From: a virus
Lineage: Duplodnaviria > Caudoviricetes
Direction: 5' to 3' (one strand)
IMG/VR virus record: IMGVR_UViG_3300010340_001122
DNA: 64,000 nucleotides
Shown one piece after another: positions 2,098-64,000 of this stretch. The notes beneath the pieces are model-generated. The model had not been told where the DNA came from, did not search any database, and saw only the letters and a list, made by a program, of their open reading frames with translations. The position numbers and the translations under genes are program-made. How positions within the stretch are numbered: the stretch's first letter is position 1; the number at the start of each line of letters is the position of its first letter.

Positions 2098-2404
2098 TTA
2101 CTATATTTAAACGAATGTTTCTCCAATAACTTTTAGATTCTCTTATATTCAATGTTATATATTTCAAATTATAGTTAGCTGATTTTATAACATTCATAAT
2201 TTGTTTTTGTTTTTCTTCACTATGATGAAAGATTGTAACTTCAGGATTTACAATTACATTCATAAACATAGAATTTAGATGTGATAGGGTTTCTAAGACA
2301 TCTACTTCAGATAGATGTGATACTTCTTTTAAGATATCTACTTTTTCTAAATCTCGAACTTTATAAAAAATTTCATTACCTAAATCTATATTCTCAAATT
2401 TCAT
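2087..2404 (-). CDS. hypothetical phage protein
   Basis: 105 aa ORF ending WRNIRLNIV; last codons supplied by insert 1. Confidence 0.7.
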   Translation of the reverse strand: MKFENIDLGNEIFYKVRDLEKVDILKEVSHLSEVDVLETLSHLNSMFMNVIVNPEVTIFHHSEEKQKQIMNVIKSANYNLKYITLNIRESKSYWRNIRLNIVITE

Positions 2405-2868
2405 AATTTAACAAAATGTTCATCGAAGTTAAATTTATGCTTTGGAAAAATACTTCTACGTTTTGGTGTTCCAATTCCGTTATCCACCAATATATAAACA
2501 AGAGGTTTAATTTTTGAAATATATTCTTTGATAAGTGGATTTTCTGCGGTTATATTACCTTCATAAATTTTAGCAACATCATCAATCATAACATAATATG
2601 ATCCACCCATTTCAAACTGTTCAAATGGATTAACACATTTATAGACTTCAAATTTTCCTTCTTGAATAGCTTTCTCACAGAAAGCATTTTCATCAATAAC
2701 CATTTGCTCACGAATATCTTTCAATTCATTTTTATATTGAGATAAGGTCTCCATAATATTTGGATCACTAACATCAAGATTATCTAAGGCTTTTATTAGT
2801 ACTTCTGATTTACCATCAGTAGTTGCTGATTCAAAGTCGATTTCAAATTGTTCAATAGTATATTGCAT
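2401..2868 (-). CDS. hypothetical phage protein
   Basis: 155 aa ORF downstream of a TATATTTG promoter element. Confidence 0.75.
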   Translation of the reverse strand: MQYTIEQFEIDFESATTDGKSEVLIKALDNLDVSDPNIMETLSQYKNELKDIREQMVIDENAFCEKAIQEGKFEVYKCVNPFEQFEMGGSYYVMIDDVAKIYEGNITAENPLIKEYISKIKPLVYILVDNGIGTPKRRSIFPKHKFNFDEHFVKL

Positions 2869-2899
2869 ATTTATAATTTATTTACAAATATATGAAATA

Positions 2900-3235
2900 T
2901 TAATTTATATTCAAAATTTTTAAAGATATTTCTCTCAATCTTTGATTTTTAGTTCTTACTAAAATAACATCATCTTTATGAACACGTTTGTAGGGTTTTT
3001 TTTCATATTCACCACTTGAATAACACCATTCTTTAACTTGTTCAGCATTACAATAACTACACCGACATTTTCGGTTAGTTCTAGTATCTATATAATTTAT
3101 ATATTGACCACCATATTGATTGGTTAATGAATGTATTATAAATAATTTATATGGATCTTTACATCGTTTCCAATTAGGAACATTTCTACGCCCCTTTATT
3201 TTAAATTCATCACCAATCTGTAATACATATTCCAT
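2900..3235 (-). CDS. hypothetical protein, Cys-rich
   Basis: CxCxxC; ends LREISLKIL. Confidence 0.7.
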   Translation of the reverse strand: MEYVLQIGDEFKIKGRRNVPNWKRCKDPYKLFIIHSLTNQYGGQYINYIDTRTNRKCRCSYCNAEQVKEWCYSSGEYEKKPYKRVHKDDVILVRTKNQRLREISLKILNIN

Positions 3236-4441: not shown

Positions 4442-5557
4442 TTATACTTTAGGATTATTTATAGAATCAATCCATTCCGTTGTAATTGATTTTAAAATTT
4501 CAATATAAAGTTTAATACAATTCTCAACATCTTTTTTATGAACCATTTCTACTGTTGTATGCATATATTTTAGAGGTGATGCTAGAATGGCTGTTGGTGT
4601 ATTCTCAAGGAAAAATGATACAGTATCATTGCCATAAGAACCAACCGTTAGTTGAACAGGTATATCATTTGATTTCGCAACCTCACGAATCATAGTATTA
4701 ATTCCTCTGTGGTTTTGTGATGTGAATTCTAGACACGGACCATTACCACCTTTTATATCACCATCTTTAGACTTATTCATCTTTGGATGGTTAGTATTAT
4801 GACAAACATCATGCACTATTGCAATATCAGCTTGTAGTCTTTTAGCTATAAGACGAGCACCATAAAGTCCAACTTCTTCTTGTACCGAGTTAACAACATA
4901 TAAATCATAAGGAAGTTTCACTTTTTCCTCTGAAATCTGACGAAGAACCTCAGCGATTATATATCCACCAATTTTATTATCTAATGATCGACCAACATAA
5001 TAATCACCAACTTCTTGAAATTGATCATCAAATGTTGCAATACAACCAACCTCAATTCCTAATTCTTTTACTCGATCAAAAGAATCAACACCAACATCTA
5101 ACCAAAGTTCATGTTGTTCGGGACCAGTTTCAGTTTGTTTACTTCTAACATGTATTGCTGGACTTCCAAAAAAACCTTTGACTTTTTGACCATCGTGTGT
5201 ATGTATAATAACACTTTTAGATGCGGCAATCATATTATCAGATCCTCCAAGTCTTTTAACACGAATATAACCATCTGATTCAATATTAGTTATAATCCAA
5301 GCAATTTCATCACAATGTGCTTCAATAACTACTTTCTTTCGATCTGGAACCAGTGGAAATAATTTGGTATTTCTATAAATACCCCAGGCTGTTCCATAAG
5401 CATCCTTATTAACATTGCTTGAAAATTGTTTAATATAATCGATCCATATCTTTTGACCTTCAGTTTCTTGACCAACAGGTGAAAACGCATTTAGATAGTT
5501 ATATAAAAATGTTTGTGATTCAACATTTACCTCTTTCTCTTTATTTTTTTTACTCAT
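4442..5557 (-). CDS. M42 family metallo-aminopeptidase
   Basis: AHCDEI, SLDNKIG, QEEVGLYGA, YMHTTVE motifs. Confidence 0.9.
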   Translation of the reverse strand: MSKKNKEKEVNVESQTFLYNYLNAFSPVGQETEGQKIWIDYIKQFSSNVNKDAYGTAWGIYRNTKLFPLVPDRKKVVIEAHCDEIAWIITNIESDGYIRVKRLGGSDNMIAASKSVIIHTHDGQKVKGFFGSPAIHVRSKQTETGPEQHELWLDVGVDSFDRVKELGIEVGCIATFDDQFQEVGDYYVGRSLDNKIGGYIIAEVLRQISEEKVKLPYDLYVVNSVQEEVGLYGARLIAKRLQADIAIVHDVCHNTNHPKMNKSKDGDIKGGNGPCLEFTSQNHRGINTMIREVAKSNDIPVQLTVGSYGNDTVSFFLENTPTAILASPLKYMHTTVEMVHKKDVENCIKLYIEILKSITTEWIDSINNPKV

Positions 5558-43122: not shown

Positions 43123-45024
43123 TTGGCTTATATTCAACAAGAAAATCCGATGCCATTTGTGGGTGGATATATAACCTTTGAGGTTGATAATAATGATTGG
43201 GCTACTTTTGGTCAAACTGTTTTAGTTTCCACACCAAATCCTGGATCTATTATTATAGGATATTTCACTATTTATAATATTATCTTTTCACCAAGACTGT
43301 TATTGGTATGCATTAACGATCCTTTATATACATCATATAATTTGCCACCAACAACCCCTATACCACAAGGATGCTATATAGGACCTGGAGCGCCACCACT
43401 TGGTCCAGCTGGATCCAGTGGTGTGCAAGGACCTACTGGACCAAGTGGTGGTCCACAAGGACCTCAAGGAAATACTGGAGTTCAGGGACCACAAGGACCA
43501 TCTGGATCTCAAGGATCACAAGGACTCCAAGGAAATACTGGGTCTCAAGGAAATACTGGAGTTCAAGGACCACAAGGACCATCTGGATCTCAAGGACCAC
43601 AAGGACTCCAAGGAAATACTGGAGTTCAAGGACCACAAGGACCATCTGGATCTCAAGGACCACAAGGACTCCAAGGAAATACTGGAGTTCAAGGACCACA
43701 AGGACCATCTGGATCTCAAGGACCACAAGGACTCCAAGGAAATACTGGAGTTCAAGGAAATACTGGAGTTCAAGGACCACAAGGACCATCTGGATCTCAA
43801 GGAACACAAGGACTCCAAGGAAATACTGGGTCTCAAGGAAATACTGGAGTTCAAGGACCACAAGGACCCGGAATAGAAGTCACAAATTTTTCTGATGATA
43901 GAGTTTTAACATCTGATGGGACACAATATGGAGCAAATGCTGAAGATAATTTAACATTTGATGGATATTTATTAACAGTTATTGGTAGTGCGACTATATC
44001 TGGTACACTAAGTGTTTCTGGATATAGTTTTCCAAATTTTGATGGGTTAGATGGCCAATTTATATACACAAATGGAGATGGGATTTTAGGATGGACTTAT
44101 TCGATTGGTGGTAGTGGATCAGTTGGACCTCAAGGAGATCCAGGACCACAAGGAGATGCAGGATCACCAGGACCACAAGGAGATCCAGGACCACAAGGAG
44201 ATGCTGGATCACCGGGACCTCAAGGAGATCCAGGACCACAAGGAGATGCTGGATCACCAGGACCACAAGGAGATCCGGGACCACAAGGAGATGCTGGATC
44301 ACCGGGACCACAAGGAGATCCGGGACCACAAGGAGATGCTGGATCACCGGGACCTCAAGGAGATCCAGGACCTCAAGGAGATCCAGGACCTCAAGGAAAT
44401 ACAGGACCACAAGGAAATACAGGACCACAAGGAAATACAGGACCACAAGGAAATACAGGACCTCAAGGAAATACAGGACCACAAGGAAATACAGGACCAC
44501 AAGGATCTGGTGGTGGAGATACAGGGCCACAAGGAAATACAGGACCACAAGGATCTGGAACAATTGGAAATACAGGACCTCAAGGAAATACAGGACCACA
44601 AGGATCTGGTGGTGGAAATACAGGACCTCAAGGAAATACAGGACCACAAGGATCTGGTGGTGGAAATACAGGACCTCAAGGAAATACAGGACCATCCGGT
44701 GAAAGCACTGTAGTTTCACTGACAGATGTCTCATCAATATCAACAGATGCTTCTTTGGGTAATGTCTTTTATGTTACATTAGGTGGAAATAGAACTCTTT
44801 CAAATCCAACCAATCCTACAAGTGGTAAAAGAATTATTTGGAGAATTAAACAAGATGCTACTGGGGGTAGATCTATTTCTTTGGATACGAAATTTAGACT
44901 TGGCACAGATATAACGTCTGTTGTACTTTCAACATCCCCTGATGTGACTGATTATATAGGTGCTATATATAATGCTCAAGATGATAAATGGGATATTATA
45001 GCATTTGTTAAAGGGTTCTCTTAA
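43123..45024 (+). CDS. collagen-like (Gly-X-Y) fibre protein
   Basis: Two long GPQG/GNTG/GDPG tracts; C-terminal [11 protein letters not shown]...QDATGGR domain. Confidence 0.88.
43400..44700 (+). repeat. tandem repeats encoding collagen triplets (about 43400-43870 and 44125-44700)
   Basis: Repeated ggaccacaagga units. Confidence 0.9.
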
Positions 45025-55779: not shown

Positions 55780-55798
55780 ATTTGGTGGTTTAAAAAAG

Positions 55799-56007: not shown

Positions 56008-56038
56008 TTTGACATTATAGAAAACTTTTGTATATTTG
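56008..56038 (+). promoter_or_regulatory. Bacteroidota sigma-A-type promoter of tRNA operon 1
   Basis: TTTG (56008)-N19-TATATTTG (56031); second TAATATATA motif at 56071. Confidence 0.75.
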
Positions 56039-56086
56039 TAATGTAAAAGAAACAAGAGAGAAACAATTTTTAATATATAAGAAATC

Positions 56087-56194
56087 ATGACAACAGTTCG
56101 TACACATAAATCTTTTAGTAAATCGTTTAAATGGCATTTTAAAAGCCATCGATTCGGTACTAAGAACGAACTGCCAAAAAATGAGATAGTGTAA
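56087..56194 (+). CDS. attenuator leader peptide 1 (MTTVRTHKSFSKSFKWHFKSHRFGTKNELPKNEIV)
   Basis: 35-aa ORF between promoter and terminator; H/K/F/W cluster. Confidence 0.75.
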   Translation: MTTVRTHKSFSKSFKWHFKSHRFGTKNELPKNEIV

Positions 56195-56221
56195 TCTCGT
56201 AATTTTTGATAGTGAAATTCC

Positions 56222-56259
56222 AAAAACCCGAATACAAAAGATTCGGGTTTTTTGTTTTT
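56222..56259 (+). terminator. attenuator terminator 1
   Basis: AAAAACCCGAAT-loop-ATTCGGGTTTTTT directly upstream of first tRNA. Confidence 0.85.
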
Positions 56260-56263
56260 ATAT

Positions 56264-56356
56264 GGTGTCAGTAGCCGGTAATTGGTAACCGACCAGATTG
56301 TGGCTCTGGAATGACTTCAAAAAAGTCTTTTGCGGGTTCGAGTCCCGTCTGACACC
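56264..56356 (+). tRNA. tRNA-His(GTG), long variable arm
   Basis: G-1:C73, CCAGA-TTGTGGC-TCTGG, GACTT/AAGTC extra arm. Confidence 0.85.
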
Positions 56357-56361
56357 CAAAT

Positions 56362-56434
56362 GGAGCCTAAGCTAACTTGGTAGAAGCACTGGTCTGAAAA
56401 ACCAGAGGACCCGGATCGTAACCGGGAGGTTCCA
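56362..56434 (+). tRNA. tRNA-Phe(GAA)
   Basis: CTGGT-CTGAAAA-ACCAG; T-loop ATCGTAA. Confidence 0.85.
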
Positions 56435-56441
56435 CAAAAAT

Positions 56442-56515
56442 GGTGATTGTAGCTCAATCGGTAGAGCGCAGGTTTGTGGCACCTGAGGCAGCGGGATCGA
56501 AACCCGTCATTCACC
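56442..56515 (+). tRNA. tRNA-His(GTG)
   Basis: G-1:C73, CAGGT-TTGTGGC-ACCTG. Confidence 0.9.
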
Positions 56516-56524
56516 CAAAAAAAT

Positions 56525-56614
56525 GTACTCGCTCATAGGCGTGACCAGGCGGCTCCAACCCGCTCTCCGAAAGGGGTCTAACGATTGGTGAGGGTTCGAA
56601 TCCCTACGGGTATG
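56525..56614 (+). tRNA. tRNA-Trp(CCA), atypical (reduced D arm, long variable region)
   Basis: GGCGG-CTCCAAC-CCGCT; GGGTTCGAATCCC; G73. Confidence 0.65.
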
Positions 56615-56619
56615 CAAAA

Positions 56620-56692
56620 GGTTTCATAGCTCAGTTGGTAGAGCGTCGCCCTGAAGAGGCGAGCGTCGGCGGTTCAAGTCCGTCTGAAACCA
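56620..56692 (+). tRNA. tRNA-Phe(GAA)
   Basis: Canonical cloverleaf, TCGCC-CTGAAGA-GGCGA. Confidence 0.92.
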
Positions 56693-56698
56693 CAAACT

Positions 56699-56769
56699 AC
56701 GGGTGACAGGCTTGGTGTCGGTGGGATCTCCAAAATCTTCACGAGCTACTTCGATTGTAGCCACCCGTG
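56699..56769 (+). tRNA. tRNA-Trp(CCA), atypical D arm
   Basis: ACGGGTG/CACCCGT acceptor, GGGAT-CTCCAAA-ATCTT. Confidence 0.7.
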
Positions 56770-56776
56770 CTAAGTA

Positions 56777-56884
56777 CATAAAAATGGAATAAACAATGAT
56801 AATAGAATAGATAATTTAGAATTTTTATGTCCAAATTGTCATTCACAAACTGAAAATTACGCAGGTAAAAATAAATTAAATTAA
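56777..56884 (+). pseudogene. HNH endonuclease C-terminal remnant
   Basis: HKNGINNDNRIDNLEFLCPNCHSQT; no start codon. Confidence 0.8.
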
Positions 56885-56971
56885 AAAATGAGAACTATTA
56901 CAATAAAACGAAAATGTAAACGATAGGCAAATGTTCCACATATACGGACCATTTGCCAATAAAAAACAAAT

Positions 56972-57046
56972 GATTCCGTAGCAAAATGTGGCTTTGCTCC
57001 TGGCTTTTAACCAGGCTAAAAGTGAGTTCGACTCTCACCGGGATCA
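56972..57046 (+). tRNA. tRNA-Lys(TTT)
   Basis: CCTGG-CTTTTAA-CCAGG. Confidence 0.85.
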
Positions 57047-57091
57047 CAAAAATGTGTTCGTCGAGATTTAAATTCTCCAGACACATAATAT

Positions 57092-57175
57092 CCGTCCGTG
57101 AGTGAGCGACCGAAACTATCAGACTTTTAATCTGACTCCTAAAGGACAACACTGGTTTGAATCCAGTCGGACGGA
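57092..57175 (+). tRNA. tRNA-Lys(TTT), long variable arm
   Basis: TCAGA-CTTTTAA-TCTGA; TCC-TAAA-GGA arm. Confidence 0.8.
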
Positions 57176-57181
57176 CAAAAT

Positions 57182-57267
57182 AACTCAGTTCCCGTAGCTG
57201 GCCGAACGGCTCCGACTCTTAATCGGATTGCGAAAGCACAACGAGGGTTCAAATCCCTCCTGAGTTA
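57182..57267 (+). tRNA. tRNA-Lys(CTT), long variable arm
   Basis: TCCGA-CTCTTAA-TCGGA; TGC-GAAA-GCA arm. Confidence 0.82.
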
Positions 57268-57328
57268 CAAAAATCCGAACTCACGTTTAACTTCTTAAAG
57301 GAAGATACTTATTTTTTATATATAATAT

Positions 57329-58222
57329 ATGAAAATAAATGATATAAACTGGGAAGAGGTTCAACTATTCTACAATAATGATAAAAACTGGAGTGATGTA
57401 TGTAAATATTTTAATATCAGTCAAAATTTAATTATAAGTGCAAAAAAACTAGGACTATTTATTAGTAGAAGTAAATCAGAATCGATTTCTATTTCACTTA
57501 GAAAAACTCCGAGGAAGCATTCAGAAGAAACAAAGAAAAAAATAAGTGAGATAAGAAAAAAGTATTTACAAGAGAATCCAGATAAAGTTCCATATAAATT
57601 GAATCATAGTAGTAAAGAATCATATCCTGAGAAATACTTTACTGAAGTATTTGGAAATGAAGGAATAGAAGTTGTTAAATCTTTTAATATCGGAATTTAT
57701 GAACTAGATTTTTGCATATTAGATAAAAAAATTGATATAGAAATCGATGGTAGTCAACATTATTATGATGAAAAAATAGTTGAGAGTGATAAACGTAGAA
57801 ATAAATTTCTTGAAGATAATGGATGGGATATCATAAGAATAAACTGGTCTGATTATCAAAAACTTGGTTTTGAATATAAAAAAGAATACATTTCAAATTT
57901 AAAAAGTTATATAAATGATTTAATAGACACTAAACCATTTTTTGAGGTTCCTATTAAAGAAAAAAAAATTAAAGAAAAAAAACAAAGAGTTGAGAATAAA
58001 AATAAAAAAATAAAAAAAGAATATTTATGTAAATATTGTGAAAGTAAATGTACTTGGTCTAAAGATAGGTGTGAACCTTGCTACAGAAAACAAAGTAGAA
58101 AAGTAGAAAGACCATCTTTAGAGCAATTGAAAATAGACATAGAAAATTTAGGATATTTAGGAACTGGTAGAAAATATGGAGTAAGTGATAATAGTATAAG
58201 AAAATGGATAAAATCCATTTAA
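57329..58222 (+). CDS. DUF559/Vsr-like putative homing endonuclease
   Basis: HSEETKKKIS (NUMOD3-like), DF...IEIDGSQH, D..R...L...GW...RI.W, C-terminal YGVSDNSIRKW HTH. Confidence 0.82.
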   Translation: MKINDINWEEVQLFYNNDKNWSDVCKYFNISQNLIISAKKLGLFISRSKSESISISLRKTPRKHSEETKKKISEIRKKYLQENPDKVPYKLNHSSKESYPEKYFTEVFGNEGIEVVKSFNIGIYELDFCILDKKIDIEIDGSQHYYDEKIVESDKRRNKFLEDNGWDIIRINWSDYQKLGFEYKKEYISNLKSYINDLIDTKPFFEVPIKEKKIKEKKQRVENKNKKIKKEYLCKYCESKCTWSKDRCEPCYRKQSRKVERPSLEQLKIDIENLGYLGTGRKYGVSDNSIRKWIKSI

Positions 58223-58231
58223 AATAAATTT

Positions 58232-58363
58232 GGGGAGGTAGCTCAGTGGTAGAGTATAGCTACACTCTTTTGAAACTTTACCTCTGAAAAGAGTGTTGAT
58301 CGAAAGAGTTACTTCGTATATTTTGAACATATAAGGTCGTTGGTTCGAATCCAACCCTCCCCA
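58232..58363 (+). ncRNA. tRNA-framed RNA with about 60-nt insertion between D arm and anticodon arm
   Basis: GGGGAGG/CCTCCCC, canonical D and T arms, TATAT-TTTGAAC-ATATA arm. Confidence 0.7.
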
Positions 58364-58385
58364 CAAACTTTAAAAATAAAAAATT

Positions 58386-58682
58386 ATGGACTCATTTTCA
58401 ATTACATTGAATAGATTGAGAGATATGATTAACTCTAGATTACGACCTGGTATTGATAAAGTATGGGTACAAGGAGTAAGTGCATCAAATGCTAGATTAG
58501 TCTTCACTATTTTTTTTAGCGATCCTACCCAAACTCCACTCAATTGTGGTTATGTGATGAGATTCACAAATGTTAAAAACTTTAGACATTATCGATCTGA
58601 TGGGGATCCAGATAATGAGTTTAGATTACTCGAAGTATATATGGACCAGTTTATGAAAATATTAGGCGATATAATTGAATAA
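58386..58682 (+). CDS. hypothetical protein
   Basis: 98 aa ORF. Confidence 0.65.
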   Translation: MDSFSITLNRLRDMINSRLRPGIDKVWVQGVSASNARLVFTIFFSDPTQTPLNCGYVMRFTNVKNFRHYRSDGDPDNEFRLLEVYMDQFMKILGDIIE

Positions 58683-58714
58683 AAAATCAACTAAAAGTAT
58701 TTTTTGTTATATAT

Positions 58715-59278
58715 TTGCATATGTGGTTTAGAAAAAATAAAATAAAAGAAGAAAAATCATCTGTGGTAAAAGATACAGATGATTTTTTAGAAAAGTATAA
58801 ACAGAGTAGAAAAGAGATTGTACATATGCAATCTCAATATCAAGATTATATTTTAAGATCGTTAGAGTTAGATTTTATCGATTATAAAGAAAATCTTGAA
58901 AAAAATTGGCCCAATTTTGAATCGAACACATGTGAATTTTGGAATTTATCAAAATCATCAATCACATCAAGAAGTTCAGAACTCAAATTGATTAAATCAA
59001 ATAATGGTGATAGTATAAAAATTGAAGTTGAATTTAACTTTGATGAATCAAAACTAACTTTTAATATTACTAAACTAGTAAGTATAATGGGGTATGAATA
59101 TACAAATTTAAAAAAAGAAATATTTGAAAATATTATCTTTAAATATTATATGTGTTACCTATACAAAAAAACTAACCTAGTAAGAGATGAGACCAAGGTT
59201 AATTTTCAAAGGATGCTAGATATTATTGGTAAATCAACTAAAAGAGATGCAATGATTAATAAAATTTTAAATGGATAA
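58715..59278 (+). CDS. hypothetical protein with C-terminal tag
   Basis: KRDAMINKIL; probable start at MWFRK after TATATTTG. Confidence 0.7.
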   Translation: MHMWFRKNKIKEEKSSVVKDTDDFLEKYKQSRKEIVHMQSQYQDYILRSLELDFIDYKENLEKNWPNFESNTCEFWNLSKSSITSRSSELKLIKSNNGDSIKIEVEFNFDESKLTFNITKLVSIMGYEYTNLKKEIFENIIFKYYMCYLYKKTNLVRDETKVNFQRMLDIIGKSTKRDAMINKILNG

Positions 59279-59587
59279 AAAAATATTAGTAAAGAAAACT
59301 GGTGATATTTTAACCACTTCAAATAATGAACTTCAAATTAAGATTATGAATTTTGAATTTGATTTAGAATATAACATCAAAGATAAGATTGAAAATAAGA
59401 TCACGTTCACACATCCAGGCGATTCTAAAACAAATCGAGAAGGTAAATATTATCTGATGCGGATTTTAAGACTCATTTTCAGTCAGTTAAAAAATAGTTG
59501 AAAATAAATTTGGTTTGTATTGTTTTTGTATGTACATTTGCATTACAATAATTAAGTAATCAATCACTTTCGATGCAGCCAGCCGGA

Positions 59588-59704
59588 ATTGCCGAAGGTG
59601 GGGATTACTTGCACAACAGCCCATCAGAAGCACAAAAGTTCAATGTAGTGCAATTGCTTATTAGTGGAACGTCAGCCCCCACTTTTGGCAATACCTTGTT
59701 AGCG
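59588..59704 (-). repeat. attC-like palindrome (one end truncated)
   Basis: ATTGCCGAAGGTGGGG / CCCCACTTTTGGCAAT; GTTAGCG end. Confidence 0.65.
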
Positions 59705-59743
59705 GTATGTGCTTATTGTCAAACGTAAATTAAAATTAATAAA

Positions 59744-60028
59744 ATGAAACAAGCAATTTGGAAATTTGAAACACCATTTGAAGATAAGTTTTCACTTCAA
59801 ATGCCAAAAGGTTCTGAAATACTTTCAGTTCAGCAAGACCAAAAAACTATGATACCTTGTATATGGGCTTTGGTTTATCCAGAAAATGAAAAAGAGGAAA
59901 GGTTTTTTGAACTTTTCGGAACTGGACATCCTATTCACAATGATATGGGAATTGAAAGAAAGTATGTCGGAACTTATCAATATCAACGTGGTGAATTTGT
60001 CGGACACATTTTTGAACGGGTGTCGTAG
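59744..60028 (+). CDS. cassette-borne conserved phage-type hypothetical protein
   Basis: IWKF...MPKG.EILSVQ...IWALV...GTGH...YVGT. Confidence 0.8.
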   Translation: MKQAIWKFETPFEDKFSLQMPKGSEILSVQQDQKTMIPCIWALVYPENEKEERFFELFGTGHPIHNDMGIERKYVGTYQYQRGEFVGHIFERVS

Positions 60029-60034
60029 CATTAC

Positions 60035-60166
60035 CGCTAACGTTAAAGCATTGGCGAATAAGGGGCATTTGAAAGACAAATGTTCAGCCTTTGCAGAATG
60101 TTTCATAGTAGCACAAAAGTTGAATTAACATCGTCAAGCCCCTTTTTTGCCAATGCAATGTTAGTG
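60035..60166 (-). repeat. attC-like palindrome
   Basis: CGCTAAC..GCATTGGC..AAGGGGC / GCCCCTT..GCCAATGC..GTTAGTG. Confidence 0.8.
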
Positions 60167-60250
60167 GATAGGTGAAAATGGTAATATTTATCATGAATCT
60201 GAGGTAATTGTTGGACTGGATGAAATTAGAGAATATAAAATTGAAAATAA

Positions 60251-60282
60251 TTTGGAAATTTAAAAACAAAGAAGTATATTTG
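60251..60282 (+). promoter_or_regulatory. Bacteroidota sigma-A-type promoter of tRNA operon 2
   Basis: TTTG-N20-TATATTTG, followed directly by TAATATATA. Confidence 0.75.
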
Positions 60283-60297
60283 TAATATATAATAAAT

Positions 60298-60366
60298 ATG
60301 AAAGTCATGAACACTACATCATCATCGTCGTCAAGTCGTAGTTCGAAGATGGTAATGTATTGCTAA
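60298..60366 (+). CDS. attenuator leader peptide 2 (MKVMNTTSSSSSSRSSKMVMYC)
   Basis: 22 aa with 8 Ser and 1 Arg, between promoter and terminator. Confidence 0.8.
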   Translation: MKVMNTTSSSSSSRSSKMVMYC

Positions 60367-60381
60367 AAATAAAAATACACG

Positions 60382-60421
60382 AAATCCTCGAATTTGAAAA
60401 AGTTCGAGGATTTTTTATTTT
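60382..60421 (+). terminator. attenuator terminator 2
   Basis: AAATCCTCGAATTT-GAAA-AAGTTCGAGGATTTTTT directly upstream of tRNA. Confidence 0.85.
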
Positions 60422-60423
60422 AT

Positions 60424-60495
60424 AACCGTATAGTTTAATGGATAGAATTACCGGTTTCGACCCGGTAGGTGAGGGTTCGAGTCCTTCTATGGTTA
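60424..60495 (+). tRNA. tRNA-Arg(TCG)
   Basis: ACCGG-TTTCGAC-CCGGT; A20 identity element. Confidence 0.85.
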
Positions 60496-60552
60496 CTAAC
60501 CTCTGTAAATAGGAGTTCGGTTTTTTAATATATAAACTAAAAATCGAATTTT

Positions 60553-61401
60553 ATGACAGATGTAAATAAAAGAAGGTCTGAGAAAATGAAACAAAATTTC
60601 AAAGATGGTAAAATTAAAGGATGGGTAATAAATAATAGTAAAGATAGAAGAAGCTATCCAGAAAGTTTTTTCATAAAAGTTTTTAAAAATAATAATTTGT
60701 ATGAAAAATACAATATAGAGGAAAAATTTTCTTATGGTAAATACTTTATAGATTTTCTTTTTGTTGAATTAAAACTAGTTTTAGAGATCGATGGTGAACA
60801 ACACTTTGCAACAGAAGAAGCTATTAAACATGATATGGAAAGAGATAACTTTTTCTTAAAAGAGGGATTTAAAATATACAGAGTAAGATGGAAAGATGTT
60901 TGTAATAATGCTAAAAAAGAAATTGATGAACTTTTAAATTTTCTAAATAATATAGAGTCTAATTTAATTAGAAAATATATCTTAGATGATTCAGTTTATC
61001 AGAAAAAGAAAAAGAAATACATCCAAAGAAAAAAAAAGAAAAAATGCTCAGATTGTGATAAATTTATTTTAATGAAAAGTAATAAATGTAGAAGTTGTTA
61101 TCTAAATAGTTTAGAAAAAAAATTGACCAAACGAATAGGTAAAAATAAATGTGTGATGTGTGATGAAACTATACATGGTGAAAAATTTTGTAAAAAATGT
61201 TATGATATAAATCAGAGAAAAATTGAAAGACCGGATATTAATGAGTTAATTGAAAAAGTAAAAATTCTTGGATATTCTAAGGTTGGTAAAGAATATGGTG
61301 TTAGTGACAATACGATAAGAAAATGGATAAAAAATCGGCAGATGTGGGTTCGAATCCCACCGCGTGAGATAGCTACACGTAGTATCATAATAGGAGAATG
61401 A
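60553..61401 (+). CDS. DUF559/Vsr-like putative homing endonuclease (paralog of 57329..58222)
   Basis: SYPE..F, IDF...LEIDGEQH, YGVSDNTIRKW; C-terminus runs into a tRNA remnant. Confidence 0.82.
   Translation: MTDVNKRRSEKMKQNFKDGKIKGWVINNSKDRRSYPESFFIKVFKNNNLYEKYNIEEKFSYGKYFIDFLFVELKLVLEIDGEQHFATEEAIKHDMERDNFFLKEGFKIYRVRWKDVCNNAKKEIDELLNFLNNIESNLIRKYILDDSVYQKKKKKYIQRKKKKKCSDCDKFILMKSNKCRSCYLNSLEKKLTKRIGKNKCVMCDETIHGEKFCKKCYDINQRKIERPDINELIEKVKILGYSKVGKEYGVSDNTIRKWIKNRQMWVRIPPREIATRSIIIGE
61335..61366 (+). pseudogene. 3' half tRNA remnant
   Basis: TCGGC-AGAT-GTGGG-TTCGAAT-CCCAC without a 5' half. Confidence 0.55.
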
Positions 61402-61413
61402 CACCGAAAATAT

Positions 61414-61500
61414 GGAGAGTTGGTAGAGTCTGGCTTATTGCACCGGTCTTGAAAACCGGAGGTCCTTCGGGATCCCAGGGTTCGAATCCCTGACTCTCCT
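61414..61500 (+). tRNA. tRNA-Ser(TGA)
   Basis: CCGGT-CTTGAAA-ACCGG, long variable arm. Confidence 0.92.
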
Positions 61501-61505
61501 CAAAT

Positions 61506-61586
61506 GGAAGTACCCAGTGGACTGAGGTTAGGCGTCTTGAAAACGTTGAAGTGTCGCGAGGCATGTGCGAGTTCACTGCTCTCCGC
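61506..61586 (+). tRNA. tRNA-Ser(TGA)-like, degenerate T arm (possible pseudogene)
   Basis: GGCGT-CTTGAAA-ACGTT, variable arm; no TTCGA loop. Confidence 0.5.
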
Positions 61587-61591
61587 AAAAT

Positions 61592-61824
61592 ATTCAGATA
61601 GTTTAAATCGGAAAAACAATCCTAAAACGAAGGGATTCTCTTTTGAGGGATTTTAACTTGCTACTGGAGGCTGTCAAAGATATGGTTGTGTATTCAACTG
61701 ACATAAGACCAAAGGGTGTGAGGTTCTGACCACACGGTTGCGGATGCACTGAGATACACTCAGGAAGCGAGTTCTCCAAGGTCAATTTATGAAATCTATG
61801 TGGGTTCGATCCCCATTCTGAATG
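61592..61824 (+). ncRNA. 233-nt tRNA-framed RNA with large structured insertion
   Basis: ATTCAGA/TCTGAAT acceptor, D arm, T arm GTGGG-TTCGATC-CCCAT, several internal stems. Confidence 0.7.
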
Positions 61825-61829
61825 CAAAT

Positions 61830-61902
61830 GGTTCCATCGTCCAATTGGATAGGACGTATCTTTGCGAAAGATATAATGTGAGTTCGAATCTCACTGGGAC
61901 TA
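61830..61902 (+). tRNA. tRNA-Arg(GCG)
   Basis: TATCT-TTGCGAA-AGATA; A20. Confidence 0.87.
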
Positions 61903-61909
61903 CAATCTT

Positions 61910-61999
61910 AGAGGAGTCATCCGAAATTGGTATCGGTCCGGCCTGGAAAGTCGGTCATCGGGATAACCTGATGTGTGGGTTCGAGTCCCATTTCCTCTG
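61910..61999 (+). tRNA. tRNA-Ser(GGA)
   Basis: CCGGC-CTGGAAA-GTCGG, long variable arm, G73. Confidence 0.87.
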
Positions 62000-62311
62000 C
62001 TAAATATCTATATTATAGAGTTTATTATACGCATTTTCTAATTTATCAATTTCCTTCTCTATTTTTTCCAATAATTCATTTTTAGTCATAGTCATTTTAA
62101 CTATTTCTGTATGATACCAATCACCTGATGGTCTTGAAGAATATTTAAAAATTAAATTATCATAAATAAAATAATCATCATAAATATAATATTCAGAAGC
62201 TTCATCAAAAAAATCATCACCTACAGATACACTTCCTGATTCTATCGCTCTTTTAAAAATTTTACCTATTTCATCATTTAATTTACTTTCAAATTTTGAT
62301 AAATATTTCAT
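62000..62311 (-). CDS. hypothetical protein with MKYLSKFE tag
   Basis: Start reassigned to the tag ATG; TATATA upstream. Confidence 0.65.
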   Translation of the reverse strand: MKYLSKFESKLNDEIGKIFKRAIESGSVSVGDDFFDEASEYYIYDDYFIYDNLIFKYSSRPSGDWYHTEIVKMTMTKNELLEKIEKEIDKLENAYNKLYNIDI

Positions 62312-62371: not shown

Positions 62372-62788
62372 ATGAACCATAAGCAAGTAAACCACAAAAT
62401 CCAGAAGTTGTCCAAGGACATGAAAAAACAAGGACATGTTTCTTCTAAAAAGCCAAGCAATACTAAATTATCAAGTGAAGATCACTTAGCTGAGAAGCCA
62501 AAAAAAGGTGGAACTCATAGAGAGCCAAATTCTAAAAAGGTAGATGCTGAGAAGTTTTTAGCTAAAGATCACAAACTTACACATATAAAAGAATTTAATT
62601 CTTTTAATGAAAGTCAAAGTCTTCTTACGGATGAGGAGAAAAAATGGTTAGAATCTATCATTTCATATGCCGATAATTATCAGGGGTTTGAACCTAATGA
62701 TATCAAAATGAGAGATTCTATTTTTCACAAACTGGGAATAGGAACTAAAAATAATAATGATAACTGGGAAGCCGGTTCAGGATATTAA
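62372..62788 (+). CDS. basic/acidic hypothetical protein with internal HIKEFNSFNE tag
   Basis: 138 aa; TAATATATA upstream. Confidence 0.7.
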   Translation: MNHKQVNHKIQKLSKDMKKQGHVSSKKPSNTKLSSEDHLAEKPKKGGTHREPNSKKVDAEKFLAKDHKLTHIKEFNSFNESQSLLTDEEKKWLESIISYADNYQGFEPNDIKMRDSIFHKLGIGTKNNNDNWEAGSGY

Positions 62789-62806
62789 AAAATTATAAAT
62801 AATAAT

Positions 62807-62932
62807 ATGAAACATATTAAAAAATATAATGAATCAGTAGAGTGGAATGATAAATACAAATCTGATTTATGGAAATCATTAAAATCATCTATTAAAAATC
62901 TTTTAGAGTCTGGTGAAATAAAAAGGAAATAG
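62807..62932 (+). CDS. 41-aa protein with MKHIKKYNE tag
   Basis: Manual translation. Confidence 0.5.
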   Translation: MKHIKKYNESVEWNDKYKSDLWKSLKSSIKNLLESGEIKRK

Positions 62933-63002
62933 AAATATATTTAAATGCTTTATTCAATTTTAATGGCTTAGAAGACGAAACCCTTTAAAAAATAAATTAA
63001 TT

Positions 63003-63033
63003 TTTGGAAGTTTTAAAACTTTTTGTATATTTG
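63003..63033 (+). promoter_or_regulatory. Bacteroidota sigma-A-type promoter of attenuated unit 3
   Basis: TTTG-N19-TATATTTG. Confidence 0.75.
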
Positions 63034-63067
63034 TAATATAAATAAATAATAAATAAAGACACATAAA

Positions 63068-63103
63068 ATGAAAACAATGTACTACATATTCAGAAATGAT
63101 TGA
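63068..63103 (+). CDS. attenuator leader peptide 3 (MKTMYYIFRND)
   Basis: 11-aa ORF between promoter and tandem terminators. Confidence 0.6.
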   Translation: MKTMYYIFRND

Positions 63104-63132
63104 TCAAGGTCAGTAGTGCTATAACTATATCT

Positions 63133-63194
63133 ACCCAGTCAATCAAAAATTGACTGGGTTTTTTTTACCCAGTTATTCCGAACTGGGTTTTTTT
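63133..63194 (+). terminator. tandem attenuator terminators
   Basis: ACCCAGTCAAT/ATTGACTGGGT + T-run, then ACCCAGTT/AACTGGGT + T-run. Confidence 0.85.
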
Positions 63195-63219
63195 ATGCCC
63201 AATAAAAAATTAAACAGAT

Positions 63220-63564
63220 ATGAAAATAAAACAACAGATACGAGATAAATTCAGAAAAGATGTCTTTGAAAGAGACAACTATAAGTGTGTAATATGTGGT
63301 AAATCAGATCTTAAATTAGATGCTCATCACATAACTAATCGAAAAAAGATGCCGAATGGTGGATATGTTAAGGAGAATGGTATCACACTTTGTGATTGTT
63401 ATGATGGGTGTCATTTTAAAGCTGAACAATTCAATTGTGGTTATACTGAGTGGTATGTTATTCAGACTAAAGGACAATACTTGGAAGAATTTACAGCTGA
63501 AAATCTATACAAAAAAATTAACTCAAGCTATGAACTAGCTTATAAAAAATCAGAAAGACTATGA
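63220..63564 (+). CDS. HNH endonuclease
   Basis: RDNYKCVICG, LDAHHI, NGITLC...CH. Confidence 0.85.
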   Translation: MKIKQQIRDKFRKDVFERDNYKCVICGKSDLKLDAHHITNRKKMPNGGYVKENGITLCDCYDGCHFKAEQFNCGYTEWYVIQTKGQYLEEFTAENLYKKINSSYELAYKKSERL

Positions 63565-63779
63565 ACACAGATGTCAATGAGGATTTTGAAAACATATATG
63601 AAGAAAAAGTCCAAGATATAAAGAAAAGAAAACGAGCTCTTCGTTTCATTCAAGATCCAAATATGGTTAAGAAAATCAAAAAAGATCTTGAACGTGAGAA
63701 GCGTGGAGTAAAACGCTCTGAAAAGCACCAGCTTAAAGAGTGGATAAAAAAAGAATTAAATAAAGATCCTTTATTATAG
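63561..63779 (+). CDS. small basic coiled-coil protein
   Basis: 72 aa; ATGA overlap. Confidence 0.6.
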   Translation: MNTDVNEDFENIYEEKVQDIKKRKRALRFIQDPNMVKKIKKDLEREKRGVKRSEKHQLKEWIKKELNKDPLL

Positions 63780-63830: not shown

Positions 63831-64000
63831 ATGAAATGGACAAAAGAAGAATGTATGAGAGTTTCTTTATATTTTAAAAAAAGAAGTGATTTTGAAAGAA
63901 ATTATAGAGGTGCATATATGGCTGCTTTAAAAAATAATTGGATAGATGAAGTATGTTCACATATGGACACAGTGAAGGTATGGAGTGAAGACGAGTGTTA
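63831..64000 (+). CDS. partial ORF with KWT.E.C repeats (typical of phage homing endonucleases)
   Basis: MKWTKEEC...AY.AA.KNNW.DEVCSHM; runs off the window. Confidence 0.6.
   Translation, partial: MKWTKEECMRVSLYFKKRSDFERNYRGAYMAALKNNWIDEVCSHMDTVKVWSEDEC

Follow-up and report, generated by a model that had tools for sequence, protein, structure and literature searches.

Enterobacterial amino-acid operons are controlled by attenuators with leader peptides such as trpL, hisL, pheL, thrL and ilvL, and in Escherichia coli the pheST operon, whose cargo is the matching synthetase, is preceded by the Phe-rich leader pheM. In phage lambda, the terminator of the pR'-tR' unit (6S RNA) is overcome by Q antitermination; Q acts at the promoter, and neither alternative helices nor an open reading frame (ORF) are needed. 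Phage T4 employs Pnkp and Rnl1 to repair tRNA-Lys that has been cut by the anticodon nuclease PrrC, and no leader-peptide attenuator is known to gate these T4 genes. RtcR, a CARF-domain activator that binds tRNA fragments, induces the RNA-repair operon rtcBA (Hughes et al. 2020, PMC7790460). In the present study we analysed a leader region close to the 3' end of a 64,000-nucleotide stretch of DNA from a virus of the Caudoviricetes (IMG/VR record IMGVR_UViG_3300010340_001122; the whole stretch is called the window below). With high confidence, this element is a conserved leader in which a terminator and an antiterminator control a phage RNA-ligase operon in cis. With clearly less confidence, but as the reading that we favour, we regard it as a promoter-proximal, ribosome-mediated transcription attenuator that gates the genes for an HNH nuclease, the small protein p72, a GIY-YIG nuclease and two PF09414 ligases. 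Full-text searches of the literature revealed no description of attenuation by a leader peptide in front of RNA-ligase or tRNA genes of phages. The following features were located:

63003-63033, + strand: promoter of the Bacteroidota type, with the -33 element TTTG at 63003-06, a 19-nt spacer and the -7 element TATATTTG at 63026-33
63038-63067, + strand: 5' untranslated region (UTR) of 30 nt, A-rich, unpaired in the folds, with A at -3 of the ATG and without a Shine-Dalgarno sequence
63068-63103, + strand: leader ORF MKTMYYIFRND, 11 codons (ATG 63068) followed by TGA (63101-63103)
63079-63085, + strand: segment 1, GUACUAC, the codons of Tyr5 and Tyr6 and 5' strand of hairpin H1 in minimum free energy (MFE) folds
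63097-63112, + strand: segment 2, the antiterminator strand UGAUUGAU, by complementarity a partial copy of the 3' arm of terminator T1 that overlaps the stop codon
63113-63119, + strand: segment 2b, GUAGUGC, 3' strand of H1 by MFE fold and duplex prediction
63131-63166, + strand: terminator T1, with the antiterminator partner at 63131-63145, the stem at 63133-63159 and a U-run at 63160-63166
63167-63195, + strand: terminator T2, with the same 7-nt arms as T1, consisting of a stem (63167-63188) and a U-run

As in the trpL-type attenuators, a short promoter-proximal leader ORF is combined with mutually exclusive pairings, namely a predicted 1:2 helix (pause or anti-antiterminator), a 2:3 antiterminator and the 3:4 stem of an intrinsic terminator. 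The position of the stop codon would let a ribosome that completes the ORF mask segment 2, and the candidate regulatory codons precede this segment by about 14 nt. In contrast to the trpL type, the leader is carried by a Bacteroidota-type phage without Shine-Dalgarno sequence, precedes RNA ligases and nucleases instead of biosynthetic enzymes, offers only two candidate sensor codons without clear enrichment, favours the antiterminator in the absence of a ribosome and has a duplicated terminator. The application of attenuation to the translation apparatus, and not to amino-acid synthesis, is reminiscent of pheST; however, the cargo here includes RNA ligases, and only those relatives in which a leader with His codons goes along with a HisRS-like gene resemble pheST. 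A terminator about 100-200 nt past the promoter that has to be overcome for downstream expression is shared with lambda pR'-tR', whereas the present locus features a cis antiterminator helix with covariation. T4 is similar in that a phage RNA ligase lies beside a phage tRNA region, which makes tRNA repair as a counter-defence a plausible role, but in the present cassette no kinase-phosphatase was found and the ligases are predicted from sequence. The nearest functional analogue is the RtcR-rtcBA system, in which a signal of damage to the tRNA pool turns on an RNA-ligase operon; here, the proposed sensor is a ribosome on the leader ORF, the ligases belong to PF09414 and not to RtcB, and the system is phage-borne.

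Promoter, helices and terminators of the leader

The window has a G+C content of 27% and is phage-like by its collagen-repeat tail-fibre gene, its PHROG families and its homing-type nucleases. It also encodes a CHU_C type-IX secretion sorting domain, which together with the promoter motif TTTG-N19-TAnnTTTG indicates a Bacteroidota host; the sequence points to a huge phage of Bacteroidota-type hosts as the carrier. A pattern search for promoter sites of the type TTTG-N19-TATATTTG yielded 8 sites in the window compared to 2.8 expected. The same extended box precedes the units at 55781, 56008 and 60251 and is kept in all leader-bearing relatives. For Bacteroidota, a promoter consensus with a near-invariant G at -5 has been described, and an A at -3 of the ATG is a positive determinant of initiation in Flavobacterium (PMC6847099). 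Since the G is taken as position -5, transcription presumably starts near 63038.

An initial annotation of the window, which lacked the promoter, had described the leader MKTMYYIFRND, its helices and two terminators, and all of these were recovered at the same positions. The proposed 1:2 pairing of GTACTAC (63079-85) with GTAGTGC (63113-19) corresponds to H1, a helix of 7 bp that is present in the MFE fold. The proposed 2:3 pairing of TGATTGAT (63097-104) with GTCAATCA (63138-145) comprises 8 bp including one G-U pair and goes beyond what is found in shuffled sequences: the complementarity of the leader to the 5' arm of T1 amounts to -12.0 kcal/mol, compared to a mean of -5.6 kcal/mol for shuffles (p = 0.005; p = 0.02 for a narrower arm). 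The antiterminator is extended, beyond what the initial annotation had described, by pairing of GG (63108-09) with CC (63135-36) and of GUAG (63113-16) with CUAC (63131-34). Because GUAG also pairs with CUAC, segment 2b is common to the 1:2 helix and to the antiterminator, which is the classic exclusive topology. The stop codon (63101-03) falls inside segment 2, which also contains a small local hairpin (63101-04 with 63109-12).

T1 has 11 bp (-16.2 kcal/mol), and T2, which follows directly, has 8 bp (-11.2 kcal/mol). The fold of the region 63040-63200 has z = -4.8, for which the terminators are responsible. The relay between the two terminators that the initial annotation had suggested is physically possible, in that the 3' arm of T1 and the 5' arm of T2 can form an alternative hairpin (63153-63173, -10.3 kcal/mol), but the relay does not belong to the core of the system, as T2 is confined to the window and to its close relatives L018, L020, L023, L025, L026 and L030 (L numbers denote related loci) and is missing in L019 and in all distant families. 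Judged from the sequences, T2 is a recent, lineage-specific duplicate of T1. Only 25 nt separate the end of T2 from the ATG of the first cargo gene (63220), so that the cargo, which lacks its own promoter, would be transcribed only by read-through of T1 and T2. No further terminator was found in the window between 62932 and 63133; because none other precedes them, termination of the upstream operon (62372-62932) is probably a further role of T1 and T2.

Conservation among related loci

Relatives were collected in two sets, the first (set 1) through the upstream gene for a 138-aa protein and the second (set 2) through RNA ligase 1 (Rnl1). Set 1 occurs in two forms. Form A (L007, L008, L010-L016) has the promoter box, a hairpin homologous to T1 and a gene for a 57-aa protein, and has neither leader nor ligase; in its box, an A replaces the near-invariant G at -5. 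Form B comprises the window and L018-L026, in which the leader and T1 accompany the p72-Rnl1 cassette. Within set 1 the leader is thus found wherever this cassette is present and nowhere else, even though the retained hairpin separates the two. In form A the hairpin directly abuts the box (e.g. L007 2748-2815, L008 2606-2675), the 57-aa membrane-protein gene follows immediately, and the stem differs from T1 by compensated changes (ACCCGGA/TCCGGGT versus ACCCAGT/ACTGGGT). Among the form B loci, the 83-nt stretch that begins at the fourth codon and ends with T1 shows 4 differences from the window, compared to values of 0.23-0.35 for third codon positions in p72 and Rnl1; one of these four substitutions converts the U-G pair at 63104 to C-G.

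In set 2, Rnl1 is 57-83% identical and diverged leaders are found behind the same type of promoter: MNVTYYIYKNIIDL, MMMTHYTNLSIDLLGR, the M[KR]xLHTYKI family, MTTLSHISTK..., MKVTKYTTNYDLIDFMSQ and MKVTKTTLRIIMIDLTSQ. All families are predicted by MFE to fold as H1 plus T1, with the 5' strand of H1 at codons 4-8, its 3' strand just ahead of T1 and pairing sequences that differ by family. For the H1 domain the combined z-score across families is -4.2. The antiterminator duplex of eight diverged leaders has z-scores of -1.7 to -7.1 and is always located at nt 30-44 from the ATG. In 13 tabulated leaders, 29-33 nt lie between the ATG and the start of the copy of the T1 3' arm; in L038 and L040 this distance is 36 nt (by reading by eye). 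While the distance from ATG to segment 2 is thus fixed at 29-36 nt, that from segment 2 to T1 varies between 34 and 68 nt.

Covariation was evaluated in an alignment of 15 sequences (A7) that was anchored on segment 2 through T1, since MAFFT (alignment A4) misaligned segments 1 and 2 between families. The 8-bp core of the antiterminator was 94% paired with three pairs changed on both sides. For the whole named antiterminator structure four such pairs were counted, compared to 0.6 in shuffles (reached by 1 of 500), and controls in which the structure was slid along the alignment were paired to only 8-39%. T1 was paired in 98% of the cells across the 15 relatives and also has four pairs changed on both sides, a value reached by none of 500 shuffles. 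In L033, segments 2, 3 and 4 are altered in concert. The mutually exclusive pairings that the initial annotation had proposed lie before genes without a promoter of their own and recur in relatives, the 1:2 helix as a predicted fold.

The ORF, too, is retained. An ATG-initiated ORF spans segment 2 in all seven diverged leader types, the null frequency being 0.04-0.36 for each, and about 15 diverged relatives keep a short ORF across the copy of the T1 3' arm. L027 and L029 pass through segment 2 in different frames, and both stop right after it. Within the LHTYKI family, seven columns vary in codons 4-9, five of them by synonymous changes at the third position (TTA/TTG, CAT/CAC, TAC/TAT, AAA/AAG and ATT/ATA/ATC); the other two are replacements in L033. 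This variation and the A at -3 of the ATG are indirect signs of translation. These findings favour a switch that is mediated by ribosomes and in which the ORF would be translated.

Other searches were less productive. Exact-pattern scans of IMG/VR for T1 and the leader, as well as a scan for RNA ligase 2, retrieved nothing, and six contigs with an identical HNH gene had a leader of 100% identity and were uninformative. In L030 (2470-2910) the block of promoter, leader, T1, T2 and p72 nearly matches that of L025 and L026, Rnl1 is 64% identical to that of the window, and the upstream gene is a different one. It appears from this comparison that the promoter-to-p72 block is exchanged as a module between phages.

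Proposed mechanism and alternative explanations

We infer from the data above a start of transcription, a translated ORF, a switch that is operated by a stalled ribosome and a physiological signal, which would act together as follows. Host RNA polymerase would start near 63038, and H1 would form first and enclose segment 2. A ribosome that completes the 11 codons would reach the UGA codon and cover segment 2; T1 would form, with T2 as a back-up, and transcription would stop about 100-130 nt from its start. If the ribosome is stalled with its A site at or before Tyr5/Tyr6, or if the leader is poorly loaded, H1 would open and segment 2 would be free for pairing with the T1 5' arm at 63131-63145. 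The freed 3' arm of T1 could then capture the 5' arm of T2, and the polymerase would enter the cargo. When folds were computed with a ribosome mask, an A site at Tyr5 or Tyr6 left the antiterminator helix available, and from Ile7 on the helix was lost. The operon would be on when decoding is impaired, for example by shortage or cleavage of tRNA, and this would fit a cargo of RNA ligases.

Several observations weigh against this reading. H1 alone is no better than shuffles in the window (z = -0.26 and -0.29), the antiterminator of the window is weak (-5 to -13 kcal/mol compared to -16.2 kcal/mol for T1), and both are among the weakest in the set of leaders. T1 wins at equilibrium under all ribosome masks, so that only a kinetic switch would work. 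In all ten leaders tested, the MFE fold of a transcript that does not yet include the T1 3' arm is the antiterminator, and no ribosome is needed for this; in contrast to trp, a lack of translation may therefore permit read-through. RNAalifold found no compensated pair among close relatives, whose sequences are too similar. L032 and L048 have p72 and Rnl1 without a recognisable leader, and the near-identity of the form B leaders is perhaps partly due to recent exchange of modules. Finally, two Tyr residues in 11 codons are no enrichment, TAC TAC doubles as the strand that pairs with GUAG, and the homologous UUAC motif does not lie in frame in L040, whose leader MKVTKTTLRIIMIDLTSQ has neither Tyr nor His.

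The last points bear most directly on a Tyr-specific sensor, in which the tandem TAC would monitor how much charged or intact tRNA-Tyr is available, so that the gate would open only upon Tyr starvation or cleavage of tRNA-Tyr. Tyr5 and Tyr6 are the last stall codons that leave segment 2 free, L031 has three Tyr residues in the equivalent place (YYIY), and codons 5-7 include Tyr or His in most families. TAC is also the rarer Tyr codon and accounts for only 14% of the Tyr codons in the phage; this is, however, consistent with the pairing constraint, as TAC is forced by pairing with GUAG, and the family of the window itself shows no synonymous exchange between TAC and TAT. The cargo contains neither tRNA-Tyr nor TyrRS, nor is any other Tyr-related gene or tRNA found downstream. 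Amino acids of the Q family (Tyr, His, Asn and Asp) make up about 25% of the leaders by a hand count, compared to a background of 20.5%. A link between codon and cargo is seen only in relatives with His leaders: a HisRS-like gene is present with six of eight leaders that have His codons and with none of eight without (Fisher estimate p ~0.004, inflated by shared ancestry), which suggests that codon identity can matter. We consider Tyr specificity, which we keep separate from the sensing of leader translation in general, to be unlikely, and prefer the general form.

The HisRS-like genes encode a truncated class-II core of 211-219 aa (PF13393, E = 1e-24 to 1e-27) and are located among the RNA ligases (L027 1730-2380, L033 5644-6303, L034 4629-5264 and also L039, L042 and L044); the His residue of the respective leaders is at position 5 or 6.

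An alternative of similarly low probability is a switch that is independent of translation. The helices would then be set by a factor acting in trans, either a phage or host protein, for instance p72 by feedback, or an RNA, and the ORF would be incidental. p72 is highly basic and is present in every leader-bearing relative that reaches far enough, the nucleotide-level conservation covers the whole leader and extends beyond the ORF, and the C-termini of the peptides are not conserved. On the other hand, an incidental ORF would hardly be kept across segment 2 in seven of seven leader types at a fixed distance from ATG to segment 2 while other spacings drift, nor does it agree with the synonymous-site variation of the LHTYKI family. 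L032 and L048 have p72 and no leader, and a search of Rfam 15, which includes T-boxes, riboswitches, ribosomal-protein leaders and small RNAs, gave gathering scores within the window for tRNAs only.

If T1 and T2 were plain terminators that just end the upstream operon (62372-62932), the cargo would be expressed by leakage and the leader ORF and the pairings would be without a role. The absence of any other terminator between 62932 and 63133 agrees with this explanation, and so do the leaderless loci L007, L008 and L010-L016, which keep a homologous hairpin, able only to terminate, after the same box. It is nevertheless improbable, as it leaves unexplained why a promoter lies upstream of its own terminators, why the copy of the 3' arm is conserved and covaries, why the ORF is conserved and why leader and cassette co-occur among the relatives found through the upstream gene.

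Similarly improbable is an independent small RNA gene with a transcript of about 125 nt, from 63038 to T1, that acts in trans. Promoter, structured body and strong terminator would suit such a gene, as would the nucleotide-level conservation and weak sub-threshold Rfam matches to small RNAs with terminator hairpins. These matches, however, are caused by the terminator hairpins themselves and, in a search of 62950-63260 at E up to 10, remained far below the gathering score (best 27.3 bits versus 49.5 bits); moreover, the cargo lacks its own promoter, three-way complementarity marks a switch that acts in cis, and the ORF is conserved. Sensing of the UGA stop, i.e. of the availability of RF2, was raised in the initial annotation and would agree with the position of UGA inside segment 2 in the window's family, but we reject it as highly improbable because the stop codon varies between families, others placing UAA or UAG just past segment 2, and because the UGA of the window is fixed by the GAUUGA pairing motif.

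For the ribosome-mediated attenuator that we favour, a physiological role can be proposed only tentatively. The leader could be a damage-inducible counter-defence switch in which the ORF probes decoding, and attack by an anticodon nuclease or depletion of tRNA would induce an RNA-ligase repair module. On this tentative proposal, the module of some relatives would also include a HisRS-like enzyme that goes with a His codon of the probing ORF, and the system would be a ribosome-based counterpart of the RtcR sensor. If the attenuator reading is correct, huge phages have recruited classical attenuation to time the expression of RNA ligases, and this in a phylum without Shine-Dalgarno-led initiation. 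It would also provide a testable handle on the role of phage RNA ligases outside T4 and on the sensing of tRNA-pool attack by phages.

Cargo genes and the neighbouring tRNA region

Three genes of the cargo begin within the window:

63220-63564, + strand: HNH nuclease of 114 aa, the first cargo gene (Pfam, PHROGs)
63561-63779, + strand: p72, a small basic two-helix protein (alignment, AF2 model, synteny)
63831-64000, + strand: GIY-YIG nuclease of 293 aa, of which only the start lies in the window (PF01541)

The locus beyond the edge was read from identical metagenome contigs, L001 among them. It continues with RNA ligase 1 (218 aa), a 57-aa membrane protein and RNA ligase 2 (229 aa), followed by a terminator and convergent genes. 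Both ligases match PF09414 (37.2 bits, E = 4e-9, and 92.7 bits, E = 4e-26; cut-off 27) and have the KxDG nucleotidyl-transferase motif (KLDG and KIDG); neither has a match in NCBIfam or a sequence or profile match in the PDB. They are candidate RNA or tRNA-repair enzymes. The initial annotation had expected either a tRNA, in particular tRNA-Tyr, or a gene of translation or tRNA repair beyond the window. The first expectation failed, as ARAGORN detected no tRNA in the 10 kb downstream (L001), nor in L002 or L003, while the two ligases agree with the second; the leader itself proved to be conserved in relatives, with RNA ligases downstream.

p72 is the cargo gene that is retained in all leader-bearing relatives that reach far enough. 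Its AF2 model is a helical hairpin (pLDDT 81); p72 has no family match, and Foldseek returned only generic helical hairpins with E > 1. The HNH and GIY-YIG genes are optional among relatives. HNH homologues are found at the same position in L019, L034, L035, L038 and L042 and are missing in L020/L023, L027, L029 and L031; L018 has a different HNH gene at the same site. A function of the leader as an HNH-specific brake is ruled out, since the leader is kept where the HNH gene is missing. Homologues of the 114-aa HNH protein adjoin RNA-ligase genes in the unrelated 635-kb phage LR745206 (L009 3349-4306), and among the PHROGs it best matches the N-terminal part of a profile of 342 positions that is annotated as RNA ligase. 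Because of this profile match and the neighbouring ligases, the HNH protein may work together with the ligase and not in homing. The cargo of relatives includes further genes with a relation to translation, namely the HisRS-like core in several of them and an HD_4 hydrolase (RelA/SpoT type) in L031, where it follows the cassette and a tRNA_bind protein (PF01588) is found nearby (2170-3096 and 4720-5058).

The leader sits directly 3' of the tRNA region of the window, which contains 11-12 tRNA genes at 56265-62000 with DUF559 nucleases in between. Two other units of this region are of a similar build. Unit 1 (56008-56259) has a leader rich in His, Phe and Lys and is followed by His, Phe and Lys tRNAs; unit 2 (60251-60420) has a Ser-rich leader and is followed by Ser and Arg tRNAs. 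Both share with the present leader the type of promoter, the location in the tRNA region, a short ORF with a copy of the terminator 3' arm and an intrinsic terminator. In contrast to them, the present unit has RNA ligases without tRNA as cargo, no match of codons to tRNAs and a doubled terminator. If the attenuator reading holds, the class of attenuators that precede tRNA genes would extend to non-tRNA cargo. Units 1 and 2 are retained in relatives (L008 707-890, L039 ~400-545, L044 ~420-570 and L022 ~1141-1400), and in L022 the unit-1 leader and its terminator arms vary jointly.

The two nucleases between the tRNA genes (57329-58222 and 60553-61401, + strand) belong to the DUF559/MTES_1575 type, have C-terminal zinc-ribbon and HNH-like tails and are probably homing-type insertions into the tRNA array. 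The genes for tRNA-His (56265-56357, 93 nt) and tRNA-Lys (57092-57176, 85 nt, and 57182-57268, 87 nt), all on the + strand, are unusually long for these isoacceptors. A further tRNA at 58232-58363 (+ strand) scores 50 bits with the Rfam tRNA model, was not called by ARAGORN and has a 73-nt insertion in the region of the anticodon arm; it may bear an intron. The collagen-repeat protein is encoded at 43123-45024 (+ strand), has 633 aa (PF01391, E = 8e-43) and matches phage tail-fibre PHROGs; several overlapping ORFs in other frames at this position are artefacts of the repeats.

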